In this document: piece by piece, positions 1,196 through 60,325 of the stretch | Layout of the letters: every line of letters begins with the position of its first letter | Numbering within the stretch: the first letter of the stretch is position 1 | The notes under the pieces: generated by a model | What the model was told of the DNA's origin: nothing | Database searches by the model: none | The model's input: the letters and a program-made list of their open reading frames with translations, nothing else | Made by a program: the position numbers and the translations under genes | Assembly (NCBI GenBank): GCA_902805555.1 | Contig: CADCSY010000005.1 | Span: 13,555 to 77,554 of the forward strand | DNA length: 64,000 nucleotides | From: an uncultured Acidimicrobiales bacterium | GTDB taxonomy: Bacteria > Actinomycetota > Acidimicrobiia > Acidimicrobiales > CADCSY01 | Direction: 5' to 3'

Positions 1196-2674
1196 TCAGC
1201 CAGCGGCGCGCTGGCGGAGCAGGGCGTTCACCGCCTTGCCGTCGGCCTTGCCCGACGTCGCCTTCATCACCTTGCCGACGAACAGCCCTGCCACCTTCGG
1301 GTCGCCGTCGACGAAGCGCTGCCACGCCGCCGGGTCGCTGGCGACAGCCGCGTCGACCGCGGCTGCCAGCTCGTCCTCGCCCATCGCCTCGAACCCCCGG
1401 GCTGCTGCGATGGCCTGTGGGTCGCCACCGCCGGCCACGAGCTCGGCCAGGACCACCTTCGCCTGGGTGGCGGTCAGGGCGCCGTCGGCCTCCATCCGGC
1501 TCACCGCTGCGAACGCCGGGGCGGTCAGGGCACCGACGTCTGCCGCGGCCAGGTCGTTGGCGGCGCGGGTCAGGAGCCGGTCCGGATCACCGCCTGCGTC
1601 GACCGCGGTGAGGACGAGGGCGTCGAGGTCGCGCTCGACGACGAGCGCAGCGGTCGCCTGCTCGGCGCCCGTCCGGTCGCTCAGGGCCCGCCGGCGAGCC
1701 GCAGGCAGGGGGGGCAGGGCGGCGTCGACCGCAGCCACCCACTCAGCGGCGGGTTCGAGCGGCACGAGGTCGGGCTCGGGGAAGTACCGGTAGTCGTCCG
1801 CCTCCTCCTTCGACCGGAGGGTGTGGGTCCGACCCTCGGCCTCGTCCCAGTGGCGGGTCTGCTGCACGATGCGCTCGCCGGCGGACAGGAGGTCGACCTG
1901 GCGGCGGGCCTCGTACTCGATGGCCCGCACGAGGGAGCGGGTGGAGTTGAGGTTCTTGATCTCGCAGCGGGTGCCGAGCTCGTCCGTCCCCGCCCTGCGC
2001 ATCGACACGTTGGCGTCGACCCGCATGCTGCCCTCCTCCATCTTGGCGTCGGAGGCCCCGGTGGCCAGCAGGACCGCCCGGAGCTCCTGCACGTAGGCCC
2101 TGGCCTGCTCGGGGGTGCGGATGTGGGGGCGGCCGACGATCTCGACGAGGGGGACGCCGGCCCGGTTGTAGTCCACGAGGGAGTGCAGCGCGTCGTGGAT
2201 GCGACCGCCCCCGCCGACGTGGGTCGACTTGCCGGTGTCCTCCTCGAGGTGGGCCCGCTCGATCCCCACGACGGAGCCGTCCGGCAGCTCGAGCTCACCG
2301 TCCACGTTGATCGGCCGGTCGTACTGGCTGACCTGGTAGTCCTTCGGCATGTCCGGATAGAAGTAGTTCTTCCGGTGGAAGACGCTCGGCTCCACCCGGC
2401 ACCGCAGCGCCCGGCCGAGGCGCATGGCGAGCTCGACCACCTGGCGGTTGAGGACCGGGAGCGACCCGGGGAGGCCCAGGCACACCGGGCACACGTTGGT
2501 GTTCGGCTCGGAGCCGAACTCGTTGGCGCAGCCGCAGAAGATCTTGGTGGCGGTGGCCAGCTCGCAGTGCACCTCGAGGCCGACGACGAGCTCCCACGCC
2601 TGCCCCGAGGGGTCGGTCACGGTGAACGGCTCGACGATCGTGCCGACCCCGGCGTCGGTGGTGAGGAAGGTCAT
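1196..2674 (-). CDS. gatB: Asp-tRNA(Asn)/Glu-tRNA(Gln) amidotransferase subunit B
   Basis: Clear GatB homology (DPSGQAWELVVGLEVHCEL, FCGCANEFG, RKNYFYPDMPK). The ATG at 2672-2674 is preceded by GGAGCGGACGAC, an RBS supplied by the upstream repeat element. The ORF-track extension upstream of this ATG is repeat sequence. Confidence 0.95.
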   Translation of the reverse strand: MTFLTTDAGVGTIVEPFTVTDPSGQAWELVVGLEVHCELATATKIFCGCANEFGSEPNTNVCPVCLGLPGSLPVLNRQVVELAMRLGRALRCRVEPSVFHRKNYFYPDMPKDYQVSQYDRPINVDGELELPDGSVVGIERAHLEEDTGKSTHVGGGGRIHDALHSLVDYNRAGVPLVEIVGRPHIRTPEQARAYVQELRAVLLATGASDAKMEEGSMRVDANVSMRRAGTDELGTRCEIKNLNSTRSLVRAIEYEARRQVDLLSAGERIVQQTRHWDEAEGRTHTLRSKEEADDYRYFPEPDLVPLEPAAEWVAAVDAALPPLPAARRRALSDRTGAEQATAALVVERDLDALVLTAVDAGGDPDRLLTRAANDLAAADVGALTAPAFAAVSRMEADGALTATQAKVVLAELVAGGGDPQAIAAARGFEAMGEDELAAAVDAAVASDPAAWQRFVDGDPKVAGLFVGKVMKATSGKADGKAVNALLRQRAAG

Positions 2675-2765
2675 GTCGTCCGCTCCCGGCCTGCGGCCGG
2701 GCCGCTCGGGCCCCGCTCGCTGCGCTCGCTCATGTCGTCCGCTCCCGGCCTGCGGCCGGGCCGCC
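2672..2765 (-). repeat. MIRU-like intercistronic repeat, locus A. One full ~59 bp copy plus a partial second copy, with a 20-codon mini-[23 protein letters not shown].
   Basis: The unit catgtcgtccgctcccggcctgcggccgggccgctcgggccccgctcgctgcgctcgct occurs at 2672-2730 and a partial copy at 2731-2765. The mini-ORF ATG (2733-2731) overlaps the gatA TGA (ATGA). The mini-ORF TGA (2673-2671) overlaps the gatB ATG (ATGA). Two perfect hairpins are present: cccggcc-tgc-ggccggg and gggcc-gctcg-ggccc. Confidence 0.8.
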
Positions 2766-4259
2766 ATCGCCGGTCGGCGCCATGCTGTGCTCGAGCACGG
2801 CGGCGGCCCGGAACAGCGTCGGCTCCGACAGGGCGGGGCCGAGCAGCTGGACGCCGATCGGCATCCCGTCGTCGCCGAGGCCGTAGGGGACCGAGATCGC
2901 CGGGTCGCCCGCCAGGTTGGAGGGGATCGTGCAGACGTCGGTCAGGTACATCGACAGGGGGTCTGCGGTCTTCGCGCCGAAGGGGAAGGCGGTCGTCGGC
3001 GCCGTCGGGGACAGGAGGAGGTCGAAGCGCTCGTACGCAGCGGCGAAGTCCCGGATGATGAGGGTGCGGACCTGCTGGGCCTTGCCGTAGTAGGCGTCGT
3101 AGTAGCCGGCCGACAGCGCGTAGGTGCCGAGCATGATGCGGCGCTTGACCTCGTCGCCGAAGCCGGCGGTGCGGGAGGCCACGTTCATCCCGCCGTTGGT
3201 GGGGGCGTCGACCCGCAGGCCGTAGCGGACGCCGTCGTAGCGGGCGAGGTTGCTCGACGCCTCGGCCGGGGCGATGAGGTAGTAGGCGGAGAGGCCGAGC
3301 GTGGTCGCCGGGACCGACACGTCCTCGACCTTGGCGCCGGCTGCCTCCAGCGCCTCGGCGGCGGCTGCCACCCTTCGCCTGACGTCGGGATCGGTCCCCT
3401 CCCCGGACAGCTCGGTGACGAGGCCGATGCGCAGCCCCTCGACCCCGGCGTCGAGCACGGCGCTCACCGCGGGGGCGGGGGCGTCGATCGACGTCGAGTC
3501 GAGGGGGTCGTGGCCGGCGACCACCTCCAGCAGCGCAGCGGCGTCGGCGACGGTGCGGCCGAACGGCCCGATCTGGTCGAGGCTGCTGGCGAAGGCGATG
3601 AGGCCGTAGCGGCTCACCGCGCCGTAGGTCGGCTTCATCCCGACGACCCCGCAGTAGGCGGCGGGCAGGCGGACGGAGCCACCGGTGTCGGAGCCGAGGC
3701 CGAGCGGCGCGAAGCCGGCAGCCACCGCTGCCGCGCTGCCCCCGCTGCTGCCGCCCGGCACCCGGCCCGTGTCGTGGGGGTTGCGGGTCGGGCCGAACGC
3801 GGAGTGCTCGGTCGAGGAGCCCATCGCGAACTCGTCGAGGTTGGCCTTGCCGATGGCGATCGCACCGGAGGCCGCCAGTCGAGCCACCACCGTGGCGTCG
3901 TAGGGCGGCAGCCAGCCCTCGAGGATCCGCGACGAGCACGTCGTGGGGACGCCCCTGGTGCACAGGTTGTCCTTCAGCGCGACTGGCACGCCCGCCAGCG
4001 GGCCCGGGTCCTCTCCGGCCGCCAGCCGCTCGTCGACCCGGCTCGCGGCCGCCAGCGCCTCCTCCTCCATGACGTGGTTGAAGGCGTGGATCTCGCCGTC
4101 ACCGGCGGCGATGCCCGCCAGGTGGTCCTCGACGACCGACACGGCCGACCTGGCGCCGGACCGGACCTGCGCAGCGAGCTGCAGCGCGCTCGCCTCCAGG
4201 CCGCCGACCTCCTCCGCCCCTTGCCTGCCGCCGGGCCCGCTCGTGTCACGCTCGCTCAC
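2730..4259 (-). CDS. gatA: Glu-tRNA(Gln) amidotransferase subunit A (amidase family)
   Basis: Amidase signature [17 protein letters not shown], and a GatA-like N-terminus. The GTG start overlaps the gatC TGA (GTGA). The C-terminal ~17 aa ([16 protein letters not shown]) are read from a copy of the repeat element. Confidence 0.93.
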
Positions 4260-4612
4260 TGCTCCTCCCCCAGCGCAGGGGGGACGCGGAACCGGTCGTC
4301 CTCGACCGCGGGCGCGGCGGCCAGCACCTCGGCCCGGTCCAGGCTGGGGCGGACGACGTCTTCTCGCAGCACGTTCACCAGCGGGAGCGGGTGGGCGGTG
4401 GGGGGCACCCCCTCGGTGTCGAGCGACTCGACGTCCTCGGCGTGGTCGAGCACCGCCGCCAGCTGCACCGTGAAGAGGTCGAGCTCCTCCTCGCTCAGCG
4501 ACAGCCGGGCGAGGTCGGCGACGTGGGCCACGTCCTCCCTGGTGATGCGCTCGGCCACGAAGGCATCGTAGAGGTGGCCTGCCCGCCCCCGTTCGGAGGT
4601 CCGGATCCGCAC
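4256..4612 (-). CDS. gatC: Asp/Glu-tRNA amidotransferase subunit C
   Basis: GatC motif [37 protein letters not shown]. The true start may lie downstream of the first M (e.g. at VAERITRED). Confidence 0.82.
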
Positions 4613-4878
4613 GTTCTGGCGGTCGGATCCGGTGCAGTGCCCCCGATCTGGCCGCCAGCTCAGGGCTGCGGCGGTGTCCCGCCACGTTCTGGCGGTCGGA
4701 TCCCGTGCTGTGACCCCGATCTGACCGCCAGCTCAGGGTGCGCGGTGACCGGCCTTGTTCTGGCGGTCGGATCCGGTGCTGTGACCCCGATGTGACCGCC
4801 AGCTCAGGGGTGCGGGGAGGTGCCCGCATCGTTCTGGCGGTTGGATCCGGTGCTGTGCACCCGATCTGACCGCCAGTA
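4613..4878. repeat. Tandem array of four ~72 bp units, each containing a 14-bp-stem imperfect inverted repeat (hairpin)
   Basis: Copies start at 4613, 4686, 4757 and 4831. The conserved core is gttctggcggtcggatccggtgctgtgaccccgatctgaccgccagctcagggtgcg, followed by a 13-15 nt variable tail. The stem pairs ctggcggtcggatc with gatctgaccgccag. Every stem mismatch is a G·T pair on the plus strand only. Confidence 0.85.
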
Positions 4879-4908
4879 CGGAGTCTGGGAAGGGAGCGGC
4901 GGCGGGCC

Positions 4909-5838
4909 TCAGTGGGCGGCGCGGTGGTGGGCGGCGAGGGCGTCGCCGCCGAAGTCCGACGTCGGGTCGCGGACCACCGTGTGCACGTGGTTGGCGCCGT
5001 CCTGGGTGTTGTCGAGCTCGACGAGCAGGCGGGGGGCGACGAGGCGGTAGTGGTGCCCGACCCCGGGCTCGGGAGCTCCAGACCATGCGAAGGTCGCCCC
5101 GGAGGGGTCGGGCCGTCGGCTGCCGGCTGGGAAGCGGCGCAGGTAGAGCCCGATGAGGGCGTCGGCCGCCGAGGCGGCAGCCCCGTCGAGGGCCGCGAGC
5201 GGCATCCCACCGCCCAGGGAGCCGATGTCGACCGCCGGGTCGTTCCTCGTGAGGATGTCGTCGGGGGCGCGATCGGCCACCACCGCCGACGACCGCTGCT
5301 CGACCGTGAGCGCGTGGAGCAGCTCGAAGCCCAGCGCCTCCTCGGCGGCCAGGGGCGCGCTGACGACCTTCCCCTCGTCCTCGACCACCGCCGGGTTGGC
5401 GCCGAGGAACAGCGGCGTGAGGTGGACCTCACCCTCCACCACCGTGGCGTGGACCGAGACGTGGTGGCCCTCGAAGCGCCAGCCCCAGGTCGGCGCGCCC
5501 GGGTCCCCGAACACCGACACCCAGTAGTCGTCCCGGTGACGGCGGTCCGAGGCGAAGCCCTCGGCGCCGTCGAGGACCTCGTCGAGCGCCATGATCACCC
5601 CGACCCGGGCGAACGCGGGCGCCGGCAGGAGGAGGCTCAGGACCCGGTGCACGGCCTTCGTGGCCCGCCTGTCGAGCGCGTGCACGGGCACCCCCCGCCG
5701 GGCGGTCGGCCAGTAGGCCCACGTCCGGCGCTCGTCCTCCTCGAAGGGCAGGGAGGCGGCGCTCCGGGCGGATGGCGCGAGTGCGTCGAGCAGCGCTGCG
5801 GCCTCGGCCGTCAACCGGGCGGCGAGGGGGCCACCCAC
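4909..5838 (-). CDS. DUF3500 family protein
   Basis: The [14 protein letters not shown] motif and overall composition fit DUF3500. GTG start at 5838. Confidence 0.55.
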
Positions 5839-5842
5839 GACG

Positions 5843-6601
5843 TCAGGCAGCGGTGACCTTGCGGATGAAGCCGATCGACCGCTCGGCGATGAGCTCCTTG
5901 TCGTAGTCGAGCGTGGCCACGTGGTAGCTCCGCTCGAGCGTGACCCGCTCCACCGGGCCGCTCACCGAGGCGGCGAGGTGGTCGCTGCTGGCCGGTTCGA
6001 CCACGTGGTCGTCGGTGCTCGTGAGGAGCAGCACGGGACAGGTGATGGCGGGGAGGAGCGGCTGCAGCTCGTCGAGCGCCTCGAAGAGCGACAGCGCACA
6101 GGCCAGCGGGGTGCCCTCGTAGGCCGACTCGTGCGCCTCGGGGTCGGCGATGTCGGAGCCGATGCCCGGCGACACCGTCTCCCCGGCGCCGAGCATGAGG
6201 GTGACCATCTCCTTGACCTCGGGCTCGCGGGCGGCGATGGCGGGGTTGATGCAGACGATCCCGGCCACCTCCGGGTGTCGGGCCGCCAACCAGGCGGTGA
6301 GCGTGCCGCCCATGGACAGCCCGACGACGACGACGGTGCGAGAGCGTCGGGCCAGGTCGGCGTACGCGGCCGCTGCGGCACCGGACCAGTCGGCCCACGT
6401 GGTCGTCATCATGTCCTCGATGGTGGTGCCGTGCCCCGGCAGCCGGGGCATCTCGACGGTGAACCCTGCGTCGACCAGCGCCTCGGCGAGGGGGCGCATC
6501 GTCCCCGGGTTGCCGGTGAAGCCGTGGAGGACGAGGACCCCGACGTCGTTGCCCGTCACCGAGAGGGGTTCGGCCCCCGGCATGATCTCGAGCTCGCTCA
6601 T
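5843..6601 (-). CDS. Alpha/beta hydrolase, carboxylesterase-like
   Basis: HGFTGNP oxyanion region, GLSMGG nucleophile elbow and a C-terminal His. The fold resembles Est/YvaK-type esterases. Confidence 0.75.
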   Translation of the reverse strand: MSELEIMPGAEPLSVTGNDVGVLVLHGFTGNPGTMRPLAEALVDAGFTVEMPRLPGHGTTIEDMMTTTWADWSGAAAAAYADLARRSRTVVVVGLSMGGTLTAWLAARHPEVAGIVCINPAIAAREPEVKEMVTLMLGAGETVSPGIGSDIADPEAHESAYEGTPLACALSLFEALDELQPLLPAITCPVLLLTSTDDHVVEPASSDHLAASVSGPVERVTLERSYHVATLDYDKELIAERSIGFIRKVTAA

Positions 6602-9697: not shown

Positions 9698-9790
9698 GCG
9701 GTCCTGCAGGCGGGCCTGGAGCAGGAGCGTCCCCTGGAGCAGGGACGACTCGCCCGAGTCGTCGCCGGCCACCTCGGGCTCGGGCTCGCC

Positions 9791-9954
9791 ATCGGGTCCG
9801 GCCGTGCCGACCGGCTGCCTGTCGGCGGGCCCCAGCTCAGGCTCCCCATTGGGTCCGGCGGTGCCGACCGGCTTGCTGTCGACGGAGCCCAGCTCGGGCT
9901 CGCCATCGGGTGCCGTGCCGACCAGCCGGCTGTCGGCGGGCTCCGGGACCCCGT
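9791..9954 (-). repeat. Three tandem ~57 bp (19-codon) repeats, upstream of or at the N-terminus of the MFS gene
   Basis: Units such as agctcgggctcgccatcgggtccggccgtgccgaccggctgcctgtcggcgggccc repeat three times. The period is a multiple of 3 and the repeats are in frame with the MFS ORF, translating as PVGTAGP(D/N)GEPELG. Confidence 0.7.
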
Positions 9955-16434: not shown

Positions 16435-17490
16435 TCAGGCACCCATGGAGAGGCGGGCGGCCACGGCCTGGTCGGAGACCCGGGCCGCCAGCTCGGCGGC
16501 GAGGTCGAGCCACCGGGCCGCCTGGCTGAGGCCGTGGCCGGCGAGGCCGCACGCCGGGGTGACGAGGGCGCGCGTGCGCAGCAGGGCGGGGTCGCAGCCG
16601 AGGCGGACGAGCTCGCACCACAGCGCCGTCAACCGGCGCCACAGGCGGTCGGCGTCGGTGCCGACCGGCTGGTCGGTGGGGACGGCGCCCCAGGCGATCC
16701 AGCCGCCCCGCTCGAGGTGGGTGGCCAGCGCGCTCGCCTCGTCGAGCACCTCCTCGCCGGCCGGGAGGGCCAGCAGGGTCGGACCCGCCTGCGACACGAG
16801 CCGCCAGTCGGTGGGGCCGCAGCAGTGCACGCCGGTGACGGCCCCTGCCCCCTCGAGGGCAGCCAGGGCGCCGGAGATGAGGTCGATGGTGGCGTCGGCG
16901 GTCAGGGGCACCCCGCCGGCCGGGAGGGCGACGAGGCCGGGCTCGTCGAGCACGGCGAGGAGCGGGGCGTCCGGCAGGCGGCGGGAGACGATGTCCACCA
17001 GGTCACGGGCCTGGGCCGAGACGGCGGCACCCGCCACCGGGAACGCAGCACCGGGGTCGGCGCCGGCGGCCACCAGGGCCAGGCCGAGGGTGACGGGACC
17101 CGTGAGCTGCACCTTCACCGGCCCGGCGCGACCGGCAGCCGCCGTGAGGAACGCCAGGAGGCCACCGTGGCTGGTCCCGTCGATGGTGGTGCCGACCACC
17201 GCTGCCGGGTCGAGGCCCGCGGCGTCGACCGACAGCGTGCCGCGGGCCGACACGGTCACCCCCTCGATGCCTCGCGCCGCCTGGGCCACCATGCCCTCGA
17301 GCGGCGAGCGGCGGGGCAGCTGCGGGGCGGCGGGCAGGCGGGGGTGCTTGCCCAGCACGAAGGCCGCCGCCTCGTCGGCGTCGCGGTGGGGCAGGCTCCC
17401 CATGGAGGTGACGGTGCCGGGTCGCAGCGGCGACCGGTCGGCCCCCGGTGCCGGAGGGCCCTCGGGCACCGGCTCGCGGTCCCCGCTCAC
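16435..17490 (-). CDS. Methionine synthase II-like (CIMS/URO-D superfamily) protein
   Basis: VTGVHCCGPTDW resembles the metal-binding region of MetE C-terminal-domain homologs. The conserved part starts at the ATG at 17403. An in-frame GTG at 17490 is delivered by a repeat-element end (GGAGCGGACGACGTG) and would add 29 aa. Confidence 0.55.
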   Translation of the reverse strand: MSGDREPVPEGPPAPGADRSPLRPGTVTSMGSLPHRDADEAAAFVLGKHPRLPAAPQLPRRSPLEGMVAQAARGIEGVTVSARGTLSVDAAGLDPAAVVGTTIDGTSHGGLLAFLTAAAGRAGPVKVQLTGPVTLGLALVAAGADPGAAFPVAGAAVSAQARDLVDIVSRRLPDAPLLAVLDEPGLVALPAGGVPLTADATIDLISGALAALEGAGAVTGVHCCGPTDWRLVSQAGPTLLALPAGEEVLDEASALATHLERGGWIAWGAVPTDQPVGTDADRLWRRLTALWCELVRLGCDPALLRTRALVTPACGLAGHGLSQAARWLDLAAELAARVSDQAVAARLSMGA

Positions 17491-17545
17491 GTCGTCCGCT
17501 CCTGGCCTGCTGCGAGGCCGCCCGGGCTCCGCTCGCCCCGCCCGG
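17487..17545 (-). repeat. MIRU-like repeat, locus B (degenerate copy in a divergent intergenic region)
   Basis: cacgtcgtccgctcctggcctgctgcgaggccgcccgggctccgctcgcccc. The mini-ORF frame ends ...GERSPGGLAAGQERTT with its TGA overlapping a GTG (GTGA). Confidence 0.7.
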
Positions 17546-17577
17546 CGCTGCGGGACCACCCTCGTGCTGAAGGCATC

Positions 17578-18501
17578 ATGCCGCCAGCGTTGGTCAGGGT
17601 GCCCGGGGTGCGCAAGTCTCGACGGGTGACCGGCTCCCCCGTGCTCCCGTGGCTCGTCCGCCTGACGTGGGTCGTGCTGCCGTTCACGGTGGGACCCGTC
17701 CTGGCCGACGCCCTCGACGAGCGGTCGGTGCCGGTGCGCAGCACCGCCTCCGTCGGCCTCTGGCTGGTCTGGGCGGTCGTGCTCGTCGCCACGCTCGTCC
17801 CTCGAGACGTCGGGCTCACCGTGCTGCGGATCGCAGCGCCCGCCGCCCTGGGGGCGGCGCTCCTGGGGGTCGGGTGGGCGGAGGCCGCGCGCCCCGCCGC
17901 CGCCCTGGCCGTCTCGACGGCGTCCGTGGCCGCGGCGGTCGCCTTCCTCCCGGAGGTCGGCTGGCTCTTCGTCAACGGCTCGGCCTACGGCGACGAGCGT
18001 CGACACCTCCTCCGGGCGCCCGGCTCGCTGCTGCTCGGACCGCTGCCCCTGGCGTGGGCGGCGCTCGTCACCGGCGTGGTCGGGGGGCCGCTGCTGCTCG
18101 CGAGCGAGCGGTGGCTGGCCGGTGCGGCGGCGACCGTCGTCGGCCTGGCCGTGGCGGGGGTCGTCGCCCGGGCGCTCCACTCCCTGACGAGGCGCTGGGC
18201 GGTGCTGGTCCCCGCCGGGCTCGTGCTGAAGGACCACCTCACCATCCTCGACCCGGTCCTGTTCCGGCGCACCGAGATCGAGGTCCTCCGCGTCGCGCCT
18301 GCCGACACCGACGCCCTCGACCTCACCGCCGCCGCCCCGGGCCTCGCCCTCGAGCTGCGGCTGCTCGACAAGGTGGCGCTCGTCCGGGTGGTCCCGGGGT
18401 CGAAGGGCCAGCAGGGGCGGACGGCCCGCCTCCTCTTCACCCCGACCCGCCCGGGAGCGGTGCTGCACGACGCCCACGAGCGCCGCATCCCCGTCGGCTG
18501 A
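17578..18501 (+). CDS. Hypothetical polytopic membrane protein
   Basis: A 307-aa ORF with ATG at 17578 and about 6 hydrophobic segments. No confident family assignment. Confidence 0.5.
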   Translation: MPPALVRVPGVRKSRRVTGSPVLPWLVRLTWVVLPFTVGPVLADALDERSVPVRSTASVGLWLVWAVVLVATLVPRDVGLTVLRIAAPAALGAALLGVGWAEAARPAAALAVSTASVAAAVAFLPEVGWLFVNGSAYGDERRHLLRAPGSLLLGPLPLAWAALVTGVVGGPLLLASERWLAGAAATVVGLAVAGVVARALHSLTRRWAVLVPAGLVLKDHLTILDPVLFRRTEIEVLRVAPADTDALDLTAAAPGLALELRLLDKVALVRVVPGSKGQQGRTARLLFTPTRPGAVLHDAHERRIPVG

Positions 18502-27467: not shown

Positions 27468-28111
27468 GAGCGACCGGAGCCGACGAGCACCCGCTCGGAC
27501 AGGTCGGCGAAGCGCCCGGCGTCGTCGGCACCCGTCGGACGGCCCCCGTACCAGGCCAGCTCGAACAGGGAGGTGGCACCGTCGAAGTCGGGGGCGACGG
27601 CCGGCGCCCGCCGGGCCACCTCGACCCGGTACTCCCCCGTCGTGCGCCCGGGCACCTCGTCGACGAGTCCCCGTGCCGCCAGCGATGCGACGAGCGCACG
27701 GTGGCGGCACCGCAGGCCGCCCCGCCAGTCCCCGGCCGACTCGAGCCGGGCCGCCTCCGCCAGCCAGTCCGTGGCCGGCCGGGCCGGGCCCCCGGGTGTG
27801 GCCACGACCGCGCCCGGCTCCCGTTGCACGCCGCGCGTCAAGCGGACGGCGAGCAGGACGGCCGCCACGACGAGGACGCCGACGACGACCCAGCCGACGA
27901 CCCCTCCTCCGCCCGACCCGAGGATGGTCTGGAGGAGCTCGTCGATGCGGTCGAAGAACCAGTCGCGCGCCCGGGCCAGCAGGCCCGGTGCCGGCCGGTC
28001 GAACACGGGGTCCGACAGCACCTGGTCGGCCGCCCGCCTGGCCTCCTCCGCCGACCTGTCGGGCTCGGGGAGCTCGGTGGCGGCGGACGGCCTCGACGAG
28101 CCGACGATCAC
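27464..28111 (-). CDS. DUF4129 domain protein
   Basis: One TM (VVGWVVVGVLVVAAVLLAV) and a C-terminal DUF4129-like region. The GTG start overlaps the upstream stop (GTGA). Confidence 0.55.
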   Translation of the reverse strand: MIVGSSRPSAATELPEPDRSAEEARRAADQVLSDPVFDRPAPGLLARARDWFFDRIDELLQTILGSGGGGVVGWVVVGVLVVAAVLLAVRLTRGVQREPGAVVATPGGPARPATDWLAEAARLESAGDWRGGLRCRHRALVASLAARGLVDEVPGRTTGEYRVEVARRAPAVAPDFDGATSLFELAWYGGRPTGADDAGRFADLSERVLVGSGRS

Positions 28112-29406
28112 CGGCGAGGGCCGGGCACGGCGAGCTCGGCTGCGATGACCTCGAGGTCGAAGCCCTCGAAGCGGATGCGGGCGTCGAAGTACTGGAGGGT
28201 GGCGACGATCGCCACGATCGGCTGGGTGATGAGGGCGCTCAGGATGGCCCCGACCGCGACGAGGAGCCAGCCGGCGTCGCTCCCTGCGAAGAACCCGGCG
28301 AACGTGGGGATGGCGCCGAGCACCTCGCCGAGGACGGAGGCGACGAGACCTGCGAGCAGCGCCGTGCCGAGCACCGGCCAGAACCGCCGGCGCATCAGCG
28401 ACCAGGACCGCCTGGTCCCGGCGACCGGCCCGAGCTGCTCCACCACGATCGCCGGTGCGACCGCCACCGACAGCGCCATCACCGCCACCAGCACCGGGAG
28501 CGCGACGAGGACGCCGAGCACCACCAGGATGCCGACACCGAGCCCGGACCCGCCGGCGACGAGGACGGCGACGAGCGCCACACCGAGGACGAGGAACCCG
28601 GAGGCCTCGAGGAGGTGGACCAGGAGCCAGCCGAGGAACAGCGCCCAGGCACGGCGGAACGTGGCTCGCAGCGCGTCCGCCGGCCCGAGCTGCTGGCCGA
28701 GGTAGGACGCGGCCACGACCTGGCTCACCGCCCCCGCCATGAACGGCAGGACGAGGAGGTTCAACAGGTCGGCGATCACGCCCACCACCAGGCCGCCGTC
28801 CGCCTGGAGCTCGTCCTCGGCCGTGAGTGAGGGGTCGGTGAACGTGTCGAAGAGCTCCGTGCCGCCGAGGAGGTCCCGCTGGGCGAAGGCGCCGATGACC
28901 TGGAGCGGGACGACGAAGACGGCCACGATCGGGAGCAGGGTCGCGGCGTTCGCCTTGAGGAGTCGGAAGGCGCCGTCGAGGATGTCGCTCACGGTCATCG
29001 GGTGCAGCGGCAGCGGGCCGGTGCGGGCCGAACCGCCCTTCGGCAGGGCCATGGCCGGCCCGTAGCCGTAGCCGGGGGGCGCGTACCCGTACCCGGGCGG
29101 CGGCCCGTACCCGGGCGGCGGCCCGTACCCGGGGGGCGGCGGGTTCCCGGGAGGTGGCTCGTACCCAGGCGGTGGGCCGTACCCGGGCGGTGGTGGGTTC
29201 GCGGGCTGCGCCGGGTTCCCGGGCGGCGGCGGGTTCCCGGGAGATGGGCCGTTCCCCGGGGGCGGCCCGTACCCGGGCGGTGGCGCTGGTGCCGGCCCCC
29301 CCGGGGGCGGCTCGGGGGAGGCCACACCGCCGGTGGGCGCACCCGGGGCCGCCCACGGAGGCGGCTGCGCGTGGTCGCCCTCGTCGGCGTCGGCGGGGGG
29401 AGCCAC
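28108..29406 (-). CDS. Polytopic membrane protein with a Pro/Gly/Tyr-rich N-terminus (glycerophosphoryl diester phosphodiesterase membrane-domain-like)
   Basis: About 100 aa of PPGY/PPGN repeats, then 6-7 TMs. Occupies the first position of the conserved MoxR module. Confidence 0.55.
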   Translation of the reverse strand: MAPPADADEGDHAQPPPWAAPGAPTGGVASPEPPPGGPAPAPPPGYGPPPGNGPSPGNPPPPGNPAQPANPPPPGYGPPPGYEPPPGNPPPPGYGPPPGYGPPPGYGYAPPGYGYGPAMALPKGGSARTGPLPLHPMTVSDILDGAFRLLKANAATLLPIVAVFVVPLQVIGAFAQRDLLGGTELFDTFTDPSLTAEDELQADGGLVVGVIADLLNLLVLPFMAGAVSQVVAASYLGQQLGPADALRATFRRAWALFLGWLLVHLLEASGFLVLGVALVAVLVAGGSGLGVGILVVLGVLVALPVLVAVMALSVAVAPAIVVEQLGPVAGTRRSWSLMRRRFWPVLGTALLAGLVASVLGEVLGAIPTFAGFFAGSDAGWLLVAVGAILSALITQPIVAIVATLQYFDARIRFEGFDLEVIAAELAVPGPRR

Positions 29407-29525
29407 GGCGGGGATGCTACTGAGGCGGCTCCCGGAGGCGGTGGCCGGCCGACGGCCCGTCCCCGGTTGCTCGCCCGCCGGCGCTCACCTGCCGGTGCCG
29501 CGGGGGCGGTGCTAAGGAGGACGGC

Positions 29526-45235: not shown

Positions 45236-46015
45236 TCACCTCCCGGTGAAGGTCGCCTTCCCCGGGCCCTGCTCCAGGAAGGACCGCACGCCGACCTGGC
45301 TGTCGTCGGTGGTGAAGACCTGCTCGAAGAGCTGCAGCTCCCGGTCGAGCCCCCAGGCGAGCGTCGTCTCGATCCCCTCGTCGACCGCCTGCTTGGCCAG
45401 GCCCTGGGCGACGACCGCCCCCGTCGCCAGCTCGCGCGCCTTCTCGGCCGCCCGCGCCTGCACGTCGCCTGCGGGGACCACCTCGTCCACGAGGCCGATG
45501 CGCAGCGCCTCCTCCGCCTTCACCTGGCGGCCGGTGAGGATGATCTCCTTCGCCCTGGCCGGGCCGACCAGCCGGGGCAGGCGCTGGGTGCCGCCGCCGC
45601 CGGGGATGATGCCGAGGAGGATCTCGGGCTGGCCGAGCCGGGCGTTGTCGGCGCAGATCCGCCAGTCGCAGGCGAGGGCGAGCTCGCAGCCCCCGCCGAG
45701 GGCCACCCCGGTGATGGCGGCGACGGTGAACCTGGGGATGGCGGCCACCGCCCCGAGGGCGTCACGGAAGGCGGCGCCGATGCGGCGGGCCTCGTCCGGC
45801 CCGCCGAACTCGGAGATCTCCGCCCCCGCCGCGAACACCCGGTCCCCGCCGGTCACGACGACGGCCCCGGGAGGGTCGGCGGTGAGCCCGTCCGCCGCCT
45901 CCCTGAGCGCGACCAGCAGCTCGAGGGACATGGCGTTCACCTTCGGCCGGTCGAGGCGCAACGTCGCCACGCCGTCCTCGCCCCGCTCGACCCGCACCGG
46001 TGGTTGCTGGCTCAT
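45236..46015 (-). CDS. Enoyl-CoA hydratase/isomerase (crotonase family)
   Basis: Crotonase fold motifs GGDRVFAAGAEI and ALGGGCELALACD. The ATG overlaps the TGA of the repeat mini-ORF. Confidence 0.85.
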   Translation of the reverse strand: MSQQPPVRVERGEDGVATLRLDRPKVNAMSLELLVALREAADGLTADPPGAVVVTGGDRVFAAGAEISEFGGPDEARRIGAAFRDALGAVAAIPRFTVAAITGVALGGGCELALACDWRICADNARLGQPEILLGIIPGGGGTQRLPRLVGPARAKEIILTGRQVKAEEALRIGLVDEVVPAGDVQARAAEKARELATGAVVAQGLAKQAVDEGIETTLAWGLDRELQLFEQVFTTDDSQVGVRSFLEQGPGKATFTGR

Positions 46016-46077
46016 GCTTCCCGCTCCTGGCCTTCGGCCGGGCCGCTCGGGCCACGCTCGCTTCGCTCGCTCATGCC
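46012..46077 (-). repeat. MIRU-like repeat, locus C, with a 20-codon mini-[23 protein letters not shown]
   Basis: catgcttcccgctcctggccttcggccgggccgctcgggccacgctcgcttcgctcgctcatg. The mini-ORF TGA overlaps the enoyl-CoA hydratase ATG (ATGA). The repeat lies between meaB and the hydratase gene. Confidence 0.8.
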
Positions 46078-52526: not shown

Positions 52527-53213
52527 TCACACGAGCGGGCGCAGCCGGCTCCTCAGGGAGCCGGCGAGCGCCTGGACCTCCTCGTCGTCGGCGTGCGCCT
52601 CGAGCAGCCCGGCGAGCCGGCCGACCTCCTCGGTGACCGAGGACCACGTCCCGCCGTCGAGCCCGTAGGGGGCGGGCCGGCCTGCCACCACCGGGGCGAG
52701 CTCGAGCACCTCGATCACCGCGCCGGACGCCGCCGGATCACCGCTCAGGACGTCGGCTGCGACGTAGAGGTCGCCGAGGAGCTCGGCGCCGCCGTCGTCG
52801 TCCTCGTCCTCGGGCTCGAGCGCGTCGGGATGGTCGATGGCGTCGATGAGCTCCTCGGTGAGGTCGGCCCAGCGCTCGGGCACCACGACCTCGTCCTCCC
52901 GCCACTCGTGGGCCACGCGCTCGGCCAGCAGCGCCACCGTGAGCGCCTCCCGCTCGACCGGGCCCCAGTCCTCGAGGTCGTAGCCGACCTCCTCCTCGCC
53001 CTCGGGCCACGGCTCGACCGCGACGGGCACCTCGGGACCGTCTGGGCCCTCCCGGTCAGGGGCTCCTGGTGCGCCCTCGGCCGTGGTGGTCCCCGGCGAC
53101 GCGTGCTCCGTCCCCTCCACCGGGTCGGGCACGAGCGCCACCCGGCAGTCGGCGCAGACGGTGGCGGCGGCCAGGTAGGTCTCGCCGCACAGTGGACAGC
53201 TGGCCGTGCTCAC
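52527..53213 (-). CDS. Hypothetical zinc-ribbon plus acidic-domain protein
   Basis: CPLCGETY...CADCRV is a Cys4 ribbon, followed by a strongly acidic region (EPEDEDDDGGAELL). The GTG start overlaps the S9 peptidase TGA (GTGA). Confidence 0.5.
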   Translation of the reverse strand: MSTASCPLCGETYLAAATVCADCRVALVPDPVEGTEHASPGTTTAEGAPGAPDREGPDGPEVPVAVEPWPEGEEEVGYDLEDWGPVEREALTVALLAERVAHEWREDEVVVPERWADLTEELIDAIDHPDALEPEDEDDDGGAELLGDLYVAADVLSGDPAASGAVIEVLELAPVVAGRPAPYGLDGGTWSSVTEEVGRLAGLLEAHADDEEVQALAGSLRSRLRPLV

Positions 53214-55279
53214 GATGATCCCCCTCTTGTCGCTGCCCTCACGTCGTCCTCTCCCGTCCTCGCCCCAGGCCGCTCCGCTCCGGTGCTCCGCTCCTGGCCT
53301 GCGGCCGGGCCGCTCGGGCCCCGCTCCGCTCCAATGTTCCGCTCCTGGCCTGCGGCCGGGCCGCTCGGGCCCCGCTCCGCTCCGGTGCTCCGCTCCTGGC
53401 CTGCGGCCGGGCCGCTCGGGCCCCGCTCCGCTCCGGGCGGCACCCGCCGGCGCAGCACGTGGCGTCGCAGGAAGGAGGAGGTGCGCTCGAGCTCGTCGAT
53501 GACGGTGGCGGGTCGGGCCCAGCCGTGCCCCTCGCCGTCGTAGAGGTGGAGCTCGACGGTGCGGCCGAGCGCCCGGAGCCTGTCGGCGATGGCGACGGAC
53601 TGCGCCGGAGGCACAACCGGGTCGTCGCTGCCCTGGAGGATGAGCAGCGGGGCGGTGATGGCGTCGGCCCGGTTCACCGGCGACCGGTCGCGGTACGCCT
53701 CGGCTGCCCCGGGGAGCGGACCGACCAACGTGTGGAGGTAGTGCGCCTCGAAGCGGTGCGTCGTCTCGTCGAGGTCGAACAGGTCGGTCACGCCGAAGAG
53801 GTCGATGCCGGCCGCGCACAGCTCCGGGTGCGCAGCGAGCACGTTCAACACGGTGAAGCCGCCCGCCGAGCCCCCCATGACCACGAGGCGCCGCTCGTCA
53901 CCCCACCCCCGCTCCCCCGCCGCCCGCAGGCCGGCGGCGACGTCCTCCACGTCGAGCTCGCCCCACCGGCCGGCCATGGCCTGGGCGTAGGCCCGGCCGT
54001 GCCCCGTCGACCCCCGGTGGTCGGGCACGAGCACCGCCCAGCCGGCGTCCACCCAGAAGGCGATCCGGGCGTTCCAGGTGACCGGCCACTGGTCGGTCGG
54101 TCCGCCGTGGACCCAGGCGATGAGGGGCGGGGGCGCTCCGTGGTCGAGGTGGGCCGGGGTGTAGAGGCGGCCCTGCACGTCGCACCCGTCGGCGCCGGGC
54201 CATGTCACCACCTCGGGCTCCACGAGCGCCGCCCCCTCGAACCCGGCCACCGGCCCCCGGGCGACGGTCCGACGGGTGCCGAGGTCGGGGCCCTCGTGGA
54301 CCACGATCTGGGTCGGCGTCCTCGCGCCGCTGCGGACGGCGGCGAGGCGGCCTCCCGCCCACGAGACGGCCCCGTGGGTGCCGCGCCCGAGGCGACGGTG
54401 ACCGCCGTCGGCCAGGTCGACGACGACGAGGTCACCGAAGCCCCCCTCGACGTTGCGGCACACGGCCACGGCCGTGCCCTCGGGGGACCAGCACCAGCTC
54501 CGCTGCCCGTGGCCCCACGCCGGTCCGCCGTGCTCGTCGTCCCCGGACAGCAGCGCCTCGGCACCCGTCCCGTCCGGCTCGTACGCCCACACGTTGGCGA
54601 AGCCGGACCGGTCGTCGACGAGGCCGATGCGGGCGCCGTCGGGGCTGTACCGGGGCTGCCCCACGCTGCGGTCGTCACCCCCGGCCACGACCGCCGGCGG
54701 GCGGCTCCCGTCGGCCGGGGCGACGACGATGCGGCTGGCGTCCCACGCCATGGCCGGGGTCGACCACTCGTGCCATGAGACCTCGGTGCCGTCGGCCGAC
54801 CACGCCGGGTCGAGCGCGAAGTCGGCATCCCCCGAGAGCCGCAGGGGCCAGCGCCCCCCGGGCCGGAGCTCGACGACGGCCACGTCCCGGGTGTCGACGA
54901 CGTAGGCCACCCGGGTCCCGTCCGGGGCGACCGCCGGGGCGGCGCAGCGGCCGCCACCCCCGCCCACGAGCCTGCGGGGCGGCCCGCCGCCGACGTGCTG
55001 CAGCCACAGGCCGCCGTCGTCGGCCGCGTAGACGAGACCGGATCCGTCCGGCAGCCAGTCGAAGGTGCCGCCCCCGTAGGCACGGGCCGCCAGCGGTGAC
55101 GGGGTGGTGGTCACGACCTGCTCGTGACCGCCGTCGAGGTCGACCACCACGAGGTCGGCCCGCCCCGCCTGGGTGGCGACGAAGGCGATGCGGGTCCCAT
55201 CGGACGAGAGGCGGGGCTCCCCGAGCGTCCGGCCGCCGGCGCACATGGCGGCGGTGATGCGGACGGTGGACGGGGGCAC
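53210..55279 (-). CDS. S9 family serine peptidase (prolyl oligopeptidase/acylaminoacyl-peptidase-like) with an N-terminal beta-propeller
   Basis: Nucleophile GGSAGG and the catalytic His region GEGHGW. GTG start. The C-terminal ~75 aa are translated repeat elements. Confidence 0.85.
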   Translation of the reverse strand: MPPSTVRITAAMCAGGRTLGEPRLSSDGTRIAFVATQAGRADLVVVDLDGGHEQVVTTTPSPLAARAYGGGTFDWLPDGSGLVYAADDGGLWLQHVGGGPPRRLVGGGGGRCAAPAVAPDGTRVAYVVDTRDVAVVELRPGGRWPLRLSGDADFALDPAWSADGTEVSWHEWSTPAMAWDASRIVVAPADGSRPPAVVAGGDDRSVGQPRYSPDGARIGLVDDRSGFANVWAYEPDGTGAEALLSGDDEHGGPAWGHGQRSWCWSPEGTAVAVCRNVEGGFGDLVVVDLADGGHRRLGRGTHGAVSWAGGRLAAVRSGARTPTQIVVHEGPDLGTRRTVARGPVAGFEGAALVEPEVVTWPGADGCDVQGRLYTPAHLDHGAPPPLIAWVHGGPTDQWPVTWNARIAFWVDAGWAVLVPDHRGSTGHGRAYAQAMAGRWGELDVEDVAAGLRAAGERGWGDERRLVVMGGSAGGFTVLNVLAAHPELCAAGIDLFGVTDLFDLDETTHRFEAHYLHTLVGPLPGAAEAYRDRSPVNRADAITAPLLILQGSDDPVVPPAQSVAIADRLRALGRTVELHLYDGEGHGWARPATVIDELERTSSFLRRHVLRRRVPPGAERGPSGPAAGQERSTGAERGPSGPAAGQERNIGAERGPSGPAAGQERSTGAERPGARTGEDDVRAATRGGSS
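53239..53440 (-). repeat. MIRU-like repeat, locus D. Three full tandem 51-bp copies plus a partial copy.
   Basis: The unit tccgctcctggcctgcggccgggccgctcgggccccgctccgctcc(ggtgc) has period 51 with copies at 53286, 53337 and 53388. It is read in frame as (GAERGPSGPAAGQERST)x3 at the C-terminus of the S9 peptidase ORF. Confidence 0.85.
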
Positions 55280-60076: not shown

Positions 60077-60325
60077 TCAGCTCTCCGTCTCGGTCTCGGT
60101 GTTCGTCTCGGTCTCGGTCTCCGACTCCTCGGTCTCCGTCTCGGTCTCGGTCTCCGAGGGCTCCTCGGTCTCGGTGACCGTCTCCTCCTCGGTCTCGGTT
60201 CCCGCCTCGGTCTCGGTGACCTCAGCCTCGTTGTCGTCTTCCTCGTCGTCCGAGCACGCGCTGGCGCCGAGGGCCAGCGAGGTCACGGCGACGGGGATCA
60301 TGAGCTTGCGAAGGAAGGGCGACAT
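60077..60325 (-). CDS. Small acidic lipoprotein with an (E-T)n repeat
   Basis: Signal peptide plus LALGASAC, then D/E-rich sequence and ETETETETEESETETETNTETETES. Encoded by tandem ctcggt hexanucleotides. Confidence 0.5.
   Translation of the reverse strand: MSPFLRKLMIPVAVTSLALGASACSDDEEDDNEAEVTETEAGTETEEETVTETEEPSETETETETEESETETETNTETETES
60085..60200. repeat. Hexanucleotide (ctcggt/ctccgt) microsatellite inside the small lipoprotein gene
   Basis: About 15 imperfect in-frame ctcggt units. Confidence 0.8.

Follow-up and report, generated by a model that had tools for sequence, protein, structure and literature searches.

How can a short repeat come to lie exactly where one bacterial gene ends and the next begins, and leave the operon working? 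The question is raised by a 64,000-nt stretch of DNA from an uncultured Acidimicrobiales bacterium (contig CADCSY010000005.1, positions 13,555 to 77,554; the whole stretch is termed the window), in which a 59-nt unit lies between gatA and gatB and carries a small open reading frame (mini-ORF) whose ends overlap the stop codon of the former gene and the start codon of the latter. An original prediction, made from the letters of the window, had likened this element to MIRUs (the interspersed repetitive units of mycobacteria) and named four loci. The present analysis leads to the reading that the unit probably belongs to a dispersed, array-forming repeat of the Acidimicrobiales, located 5' of start codons and so designed that translation of the downstream gene can continue after insertion.

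The window has a G+C content of 72-77%, and its genes were called by codon-position G+C and checked with Pfam. Against this background, the 33-nt core GGCCCGAGCGGCCCGGCCGCAGGCCRGGAGCGG gave five matches with up to three mismatches tolerated (2680-2712, 46021-46053, 53288-53320, 53339-53371 and 53390-53422), while none was obtained in 100 dinucleotide-preserving shuffles. Read directly from the sequence, the four named loci all hold the element on the minus strand; the total of four was too low, a fifth, decayed copy being disclosed by nhmmer at the gatC/gatA junction. The copies are listed below.

Locus A, 2671..2733, minus strand: complete 59-nt unit with its junction TGA (sequence, core match, nhmmer, Pfam).
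Locus A, 2730..2765, minus strand: partial upstream unit (nhmmer, E = 1.3e-5).
Locus E, 4205..4259, minus strand: decayed unit at the gatC/gatA junction (nhmmer match 4212-4257, E = 0.006 within the window).
Locus B, 17487..17579, minus strand: diverged unit (17487-17545) plus a longer ORF (nhmmer, E = 1e-5 within the window).
Locus C, 46012..46074, minus strand: single 59-nt unit with its junction TGA (sequence, core match, Pfam).
Locus D, 53239..53436, minus strand: 3.3 tandem 51-nt units of 17 codons (Tandem Repeats Finder, TRF; 94% matches).

At locus A, the stop codon of gatA (Amidase; TGA 2732-2730) lies within an ATGA and overlaps the mini-ORF ATG (2733-2731), and the 20-codon mini-ORF, running from 2733 to 2671, closes with a TGA (2673-2671) that overlaps the gatB ATG (2674-2672), so that both proposed overlaps were recovered, with an ATG-to-ATG period of 59 nt. 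Its GGAG (2686-2683) stands 8 nt ahead of the gatB ATG, in agreement with the proposed spacing of about 8 nt. The partial unit next to it consists of the 3' ~33 nt of the element, namely hairpin 2, the Shine-Dalgarno (SD) sequence, the spacer and ATGA, and forms in frame the last 10 codons of gatA; in relatives, gatA already stops ~15-20 residues before this point, where the overlap is a plain [A/G]TGA. The unit at locus C likewise contains a 20-codon mini-ORF (46074 to 46012), whose TGA (46014-46012) overlaps, as had been stated, the ATG (46015-46013) of an enoyl-CoA hydratase (ECH_1) gene preceded by AGGAG at 46028-46024, and it begins 40 nt past the MeaB stop (46117-46115), with no stop overlap at its ATG.

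The other loci of the window are altered to different extents. At locus E, the gatC stop (TGA 4258-4256) overlaps the gatA GTG (4259-4257) within GTGA (4259-4256); with its terminal stop gone, the unit now codes for the N-terminal ~18 residues of gatA, whose Amidase domain begins only at residue 42 (Pfam). The diverged unit of locus B ends with GGAGCGGACGACGTGA, and its terminal GTGA (17490-17487) provides both a GTG (17490-17488) that opens a 351-aa ORF (16435-17490) and a TGA (17489-17487) that closes a 30-codon ORF begun at ATG 17579; upstream, the coding region lies on the opposite strand, which places this copy in a 5' leader rather than between cistrons. The "MetE-like" label once given to the downstream gene is without support, since no Pfam or NCBIfam match was found, and exact-protein look-ups returned no record for its product or for gatB with either of two alternative starts. 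At locus D the repeat is indeed present, but its units constitute an in-frame protein tail and not separate mini-ORFs. They are devoid of ATGA junctions and are followed by a degenerate last unit ending with GACGACGTGA. A Peptidase_S9 ORF (53210-55279), whose S9 domain reaches to residue 608 of 689 (Pfam), reads them in the mini-ORF frame (GAERGPSGPAAGQERST, three times) as a C-terminal tail of ~80 residues and stops at a GTGA overlapping the start of the next gene (GTG 53213-53211).

The family extends well beyond the window. The exact 28-nt core GAGCGGCCCGGCCNNNGGCCRGGAGCGG, scanned against 185,579 species-representative genomes, was encountered at 63 loci in 27 assemblies, with clear family copies in ~24 of them, and the carriers are nearly all Acidimicrobiales or unclassified Actinomycetota metagenome-assembled genomes (MAGs) from soil and groundwater; one match in Micromonospora and one in an Actinomycetes MAG look unrelated or only partly related. 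Instead of being restricted to four places, the consensus and its mini-ORF thus recur in about two dozen Acidimicrobiales genomes, which contribute ~80 near-identical copies. A census with an nhmmer profile built from related copies, applied to 534 kb of retrieved sequence, yielded 94 copies in 71 arrays, 18 of which have at least two units (two to three), arranged head-to-tail. No mycobacterium occurred among the exact-core matches, although mycobacterial genomes were not specifically examined, and no viral contig matched the 5' half of the unit. The peptide proved a weak guide to distribution, a search of a 5.8-billion protein set returning only eight related short ORFs, all of them two-unit read-throughs. 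Labels such as L065 denote retrieved relative loci or sample contigs. At L050 (6458-6583), in the Actinomycetes MAG JAODBJ01, a tandem repeat of ~91 bp shares GGGGCCCGAGCGGCCCGGCC-TTC-GGCC with the family; its flanks differ and it has no start/stop junction. It is possibly related at a distance, or else the match is due to chance.

The anatomy of the unit is well defined. Its layout is [A/G]TGAGCGAGCG ... GGCCCGAGCGGCCCGGCC-GNA-GGCCAGGAGCGG-N5-[A/G]TGA with AGGAG 8 nt ahead of the gene start, and the family consensus reads [A/G]TGAGCGAGCG-N-AGCGAGCG-K-GGCCC, followed by GAGCGGCCCGGCC-GNA-GGCCAGGAGCGG, then N5 and finally [A/G]TGA, conservation extending into the flanks beyond the 28-mer that was searched. 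The 5' end is a TGA, usually within [A/G]TGA, which combines the stop of the upstream gene with a new start codon. In the interior, a short stop-free frame crosses GAGCG boxes and small GC hairpins, one or two per unit, that have a GNA triloop, while the 3' end provides an AGGAG SD and then [A/G]TGA, whose start codon belongs to the downstream gene and whose TGA closes the mini-ORF. Common units are 47-74 nt long, rarely 92; the 68-nt type has an extra TCCGCAATGCAG, the 74-nt type an extra CCC-GNA-GGG hairpin, and the 47-nt type is without hairpin 2 and yet forms arrays (L149, L070).

A separate observation concerns three mosaics (L007, 1395-1446; L012, 3088-3129; L034, 1370-1428), in which a conserved 3' module, composed of hairpins, AGGAGCGG, a 5-6 nt spacer and the start codon, is preceded by unrelated 5' parts with other hairpins, such as GGCTCCGCC-GACA-GGCGGAGCC in L012. 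These mosaics hint that the 3' module is the portable core of the unit.

The relation of the repeat to genes was assessed on the 300 nt beside each array, with the coding strand recognized by G+C at the third codon position (GC3) of at least 0.85 and a difference between first and second positions (GC1 - GC2) of at least 0.08, the latter being added because antisense frames also show high GC3. The downstream region is coded on the same strand as the element in 59 of the 71 arrays and on the opposite strand in none, while upstream the corresponding numbers are 36 and 11. Of 81 exact copies, 45 have an [A/G]TG exactly 5 nt past GGAGCGG, for the most part within ATGA or GTGA. At least 46 of the 71 arrays have a long high-GC3 ORF that begins at the junction start, at least 26 have one that ends at the 5' TGA, and 18 have both. 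In all ten downstream ORFs tested, which encode threonine synthase, two ABC ATPases, NuoD, NuoI, a proteasome subunit, adenosine deaminase, a PurQ-like amidotransferase, ornithine carbamoyltransferase and ThiD, the Pfam domain begins within ~25 residues of the junction start. Because junction starts open high-GC3 ORFs and the domains begin so close to them, the element marks the true starts of unrelated housekeeping genes, in operons (gatC-gatA-gatB, nuo, pur and arg genes among them) and in 5' leaders alike. The description as "intercistronic" therefore suits the copies within operons and is too strict for the family, since at least 11 arrays, including locus B, have a divergent upstream gene.

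The lengths of the units obey a frame rule. When taken frame-blind, from the 5' NTG to the next NTG, 46 of the 56 copies measured fall into classes that are all 2 mod 3, namely 50, 59 (20 copies), 62, 68 (14), 71, 74 (8) and 92 nt; the 47-nt type, seen outside this set, conforms too. With an NTGA junction, such a length puts the junction TGA in frame, and the mini-ORF therefore stops there. A subfamily represented by L004 and L046 has the junction ATGCCTGA and periods of 64 and 61 nt (1 mod 3), so that its ORF, in another frame and with a different 23-residue peptide, closes 5 nt past the next start. Units without ATGA measure 51 nt (locus D) or 57 nt (P0001, P0002), both multiples of 3, and are read through. 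Variation is most frequent at the middle base of GNA, a second codon position that exchanges A, E, G or V. Taken together, the mod-3 lengths, the frame of the ATGCCTGA subfamily, the read-through units and the second-position variation point to selection for a stop-free frame that ends on the next start codon, not for a peptide. An ORF ending at the next start is what termination-reinitiation coupling needs (PMC12548453).

The repeat is also subject to turnover. Among ENA samples with identical flanking proteins, locus C has one unit in the window, L064 and L066 and three in L065, locus D has 3.3 units in the window versus 2.3 in L147, and the L149 allele of locus A consists of two 47-nt units with a different gatA end; the copy-number polymorphism that had been proposed as a check is hence present at loci A, C and D. 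In L148 (sample ERZ1300029), loci A and E are identical to the window copies; there gatA is called as two ORFs of 311 and 196 aa (4354-5883), which suggests a frameshift or an assembly error. Filled sites are rare among relatives, the element profile matching 2 of 80 gatB loci and 78 being without the element; one further gatB junction (L077) carries a remnant seen by eye. Of 21 gatA-gatB junctions inspected, the clearest are plain ATGA/GTGA overlaps (L074, L076, L084, L086), often [A/G]TGAGCGA. Insertion appears very often to have taken place within an operon, where a stop and a start codon had overlapped as [A/G]TGA.

Paralogous copies are 90-94% identical with unrelated flanks, while orthologous copies are about as diverged as their own flanks. 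Purifying selection at orthologous sites was considered and dropped, the copies being no more conserved than the surrounding sequence. Units that have decayed or been absorbed into protein termini occur at loci A, D and E of the window and in L022. In its dynamics, the element is a turnover-prone repeat and not a conserved regulatory site. Beside this turnover stands one shared site: in two MAG species, a unit of the 74-nt type (L030, 3744-3830; L049, 5760-5850) precedes an orthologous gene with the N-terminus M[LF][QE][VL]VLAVDIGGTKLA, and the two copies have diverged about as far as their gene; therefore, some insertions are old enough to be common to two species.

A mechanism that would accommodate these features can be proposed. 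Ribosomes that finish the upstream gene, or that load at the unit itself, would translate the mini-ORF and thereby open the hairpins; they would then terminate atop the next start codon and re-initiate there with the aid of the SD of the unit, and an array would represent a chain of such relays. The number of units could grow or shrink by slippage or unequal exchange, and new loci might arise by insertion at stop/start overlaps. Units would subsequently decay, some being absorbed into the termini of adjacent proteins. Most likely, the unit is not a regulator but an element of the minisatellite kind, either selfish or neutral.

Several points weigh against this proposal. Translation of the mini-ORF and re-initiation are read from sequence features, and the intact ORFs were counted in copies that share descent and are hence non-independent events. 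The copy-number comparisons derive from short-read metagenome assemblies, in which tandem repeats can be mis-counted. Ten of the 56 measured copies have off-rule lengths (57, 58, 60, 63 and 66 nt, in classes of one to four each). Where a copy lies behind a divergent gene, and also at locus C, neither an upstream stop to couple to nor an obvious SD exists for the first mini-ORF start, and the unit may act there only as a leader that supplies an SD. The trace of a 5-nt target-site duplication is weak and marginal. Finally, the core is strongly conserved across species and the three known replacements of hairpin 2 stay paired, which could reflect recognition by a protein and thus a constraint beyond that on a harmless passenger.

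The last point leads to the first alternative, in which the GGCC-GNA-GGCC hairpin beside AGGAG would be a cis-regulatory module bound by a protein or a small RNA, a trans-acting factor would thereby govern the translation or mRNA stability of many genes, the family would define a post-transcriptional regulon and the mini-ORF would be incidental. The 3' module is near-invariant in about two dozen species, and the loop of hairpin 2 is held to G-N-A in 81 of 85 copies (GAA 39, GCA 28, GGA 9, GTA 5). The stem is replaced with pairing and a GNA loop retained in three copies, GCTGC-GGA-GCAGC in L018 and L053 and GGCGCC-GAA-GGCGCC in L011; since hairpin 2 copies were retrieved by a pattern fixing both arms, such replacements are known only from by-catch copies. 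The second CCC-GNA-GGG hairpin gained by the 74-nt type and the union of the 3' module with unrelated 5' parts in L007, L012 and L034 also speak for a function of the structure. However, the hairpins themselves are less conspicuous than had been supposed. Both that were quoted in the original prediction are present at locus A, whereas the majority of the family carries GGCCAGG, with a C.A mismatch in hairpin 2, and at 75% G+C the hairpins are thermodynamically unremarkable, the fold stability differing from that of shuffled sequence by z = -1.1 to +1.3. Rfam 15 gave no match at the gathering score over the whole window and none even at E <= 1 over 2600-5000. A structural role for hairpin 2 is possible but not required, because copies of the 47-nt type (L149, L070) form arrays and propagate without it. 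Moreover, the location varies among relatives (two matched gatB loci of 80 plus the L077 remnant), the copy number differs within a population, the downstream genes are without functional relation, and the mod-3 rule would be left unexplained. Regulation of this kind is consequently regarded as unlikely.

The second alternative concerns the spread of the repeat and is compatible with the relay proposal. The unit would be a non-autonomous mobile element of the REP/RAYT or IS200/IS605 (HUH) type, recognized through its hairpins and inserted 3' of a TGA-containing tetranucleotide, and its own 3' end would regenerate the target, thereby giving head-to-tail arrays. Small GC hairpins that carry a GNA triloop are a typical form of stable hairpin in single-stranded DNA, and they are present here, together with [A/G]TGA at both unit ends and paralogues that are 90-94% identical in unrelated flanks. 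The 5 nt before the left ATGA also resemble the N5 spacer slightly above chance, with a mean of 2.27 versus 1.93 matches (p ~0.015, cases with a preceding partial unit removed) and at least four of five matches in 6 of 33 units (p ~0.012), but this duplication signal is weak and would be unexpected for an insertion of the IS200/IS605 type. REP/RAYT repeats are characterized by an imperfect palindrome, a conserved 5' tetranucleotide, occurrence in both orientations and a RAYT (Y1 transposase) gene; judged by these characters, the present family has the hairpins and is strictly unidirectional. No transposase was seen in the 64-kb window and in fragments of ~3-8 kb, none having been specifically searched for, while co-orientation and array variation are equally accounted for by post-insertion selection and by replication slippage, respectively. 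Such mobility is likewise regarded as unlikely.

A bolder version of these two ideas, to which only a small chance is assigned, is that of an actively targeted cassette, in which a dedicated Acidimicrobiales enzyme would read the GNA-triloop hairpins and insert the unit at stop/start junctions, or in which an RNA-binding factor would co-regulate hundreds of housekeeping genes via the SD-side hairpin. If true, it would explain why an identical non-coding 28-mer exists in some two dozen species and why the replaced hairpins retain both their pairing and the GNA loop.

That the repeats form a multigene family for a functional micropeptide of 20 residues is very improbable. The ORF is intact in most copies, and the three positions at which the 5' half of the 59-nt type varies most (12, 15 and 21) are third codon positions; nevertheless, the commonest variable site of all is a second codon position with A, E, G or V, the final two residues are unconstrained, the ATGCCTGA subfamily keeps an ORF with a different peptide in the other frame, units serve as tails of unrelated proteins, and the eight related short ORFs in the protein database are all two-unit read-throughs. 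It is hardly credible, despite the GC-rich hairpins, that the element is an intrinsic terminator, an attenuator or a low-complexity GC-rich match due to chance, as no terminator-like site (nor any sigma-70-like site) was found at loci A, B and C, the element has no T-run and lies within the essential operons gatCAB, nuo, pur and arg, and 0 shuffle matches contrast with ~80 near-identical copies in other genomes.

The preferred reading, that of a translationally tolerated repeat, can be compared with known repeat systems, among which the MIRUs are the closest. [quoted passage not shown] Their insertion is at start codons, and their internal ORF is coupled with -4 spacing (PMC12548453), the description going back to Supply et al. 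1997/2000 according to PMC3914561, PMC6286618 and PMC12548453. The likeness first proposed for the window element extends to every part of this architecture. The unit sizes are comparable (47-74 nt, rarely 92, in the present family), and both repeats occupy many dispersed loci as single units or head-to-tail arrays, are co-oriented with the flanking genes at start codons or in operons, possess a small ORF whose ends overlap the neighboring stop and start (-4 coupling), and differ from strain to strain in the number of copies. MIRU units of 53 and 77 bp, the lengths published, likewise obey 2 mod 3, and motif A also holds GGAGCGG-N5-ATG, as read from the motifs in PMC6286618.

The differences are equally clear. 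Sequence homology to the MIRUs was rejected, as local alignments with motifs A and B score 17-18 and the shuffle means are 19-22; apart from GGAGCGG-N5-ATG, only an AGCG-N-AGCG-like stretch is shared. The host belongs to the class Acidimicrobiia rather than to Mycobacterium, GAGCG boxes and a GGCC-GNA-GGCC hairpin make up the core, about two dozen species-level genomes share near-identical units, the ATGCCTGA subfamily uses another frame with an 8-nt overlap, and many copies stand in 5' leaders behind divergent genes. The family is therefore best filed as MIRU-like in its apparent design and outside the MIRU sequence family. The suggestion that no such family had been described outside mycobacteria agrees with the literature covered, incompletely, in which no match was found for MIRU-like elements elsewhere, for Acidimicrobiia repeats or for the core sequences.

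Other systems resemble the family in part. REP/BIME, ERIC, Correia/NEMIS, BOX and RUP are likewise short, high-copy hairpin repeats within transcription units, possibly mobilized in trans. Families of the REP/ERIC type occur in both orientations, typically after genes or between convergent genes, and have neither a start/stop-overlapping ORF nor an SD placed for the next gene, whereas the present family is strictly co-oriented and start-codon-proximal. Rickettsia palindromic elements are also read in frame within host proteins, as loci A, D, E and L022 are here, but they insert within coding sequences, while absorption in the present family is secondary, follows loss of the junction stop and affects termini only. 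With coupling upstream ORFs (PMC12548453) the unit shares the NTGA overlap, an SD a few nt upstream and the irrelevance of ORF content, the difference being that its coupling ORF is a repeated, portable cassette and not a locus-specific leader.

MIRUs have so far been treated as a mycobacterial peculiarity, and a sequence-unrelated family of the same design in another class of Actinomycetota shows that this design is a general route by which repeats colonise coupled, gene-dense operons unbroken; its occurrence in two classes is probably convergent. The junction-dependent mod-3 rule offers a test, from sequence only, of whether ribosomes see the mini-ORFs. For the annotation of Acidimicrobiales MAGs, start and stop calls as well as terminal low-complexity tails (e.g. 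ERGPSGPAAGQER repeats) will often be element-derived, and the arrays could be used as variable-number tandem repeat markers for abundant uncultured soil Acidimicrobiales.

Several further repeats of the window are distinct from the family. Between the stop of a DUF3500 gene (4909) and the gatC start (4612), 3.7 units of 71 bp (4612-4876, minus strand) carry the inverted repeat CTGGCGGTCAGATC...GATCCGACCGCCAG; this is their single site in the window, and no Rfam match was found. At 223 nt, the DUF3500-gatC intergenic region of L148 is shorter than that of L149 (294 nt) or of the window (296 nt), suggesting that L148 has one 71-bp unit fewer. At 29086-29305, within the minus-strand ORF 28108-29484, ~11 copies of an 18-bp repeat (CCCGTACCCGGGCGGCGG) probably encode a Pro/Gly-rich protein repeat. 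Two additional repeats detected by TRF, at 9778-9941 (57 bp x 2.9) and 60082-60221 (6/18/24-bp, TCTCGG-type), lie within high-GC3 ORFs and are likely coding-sequence repeats.

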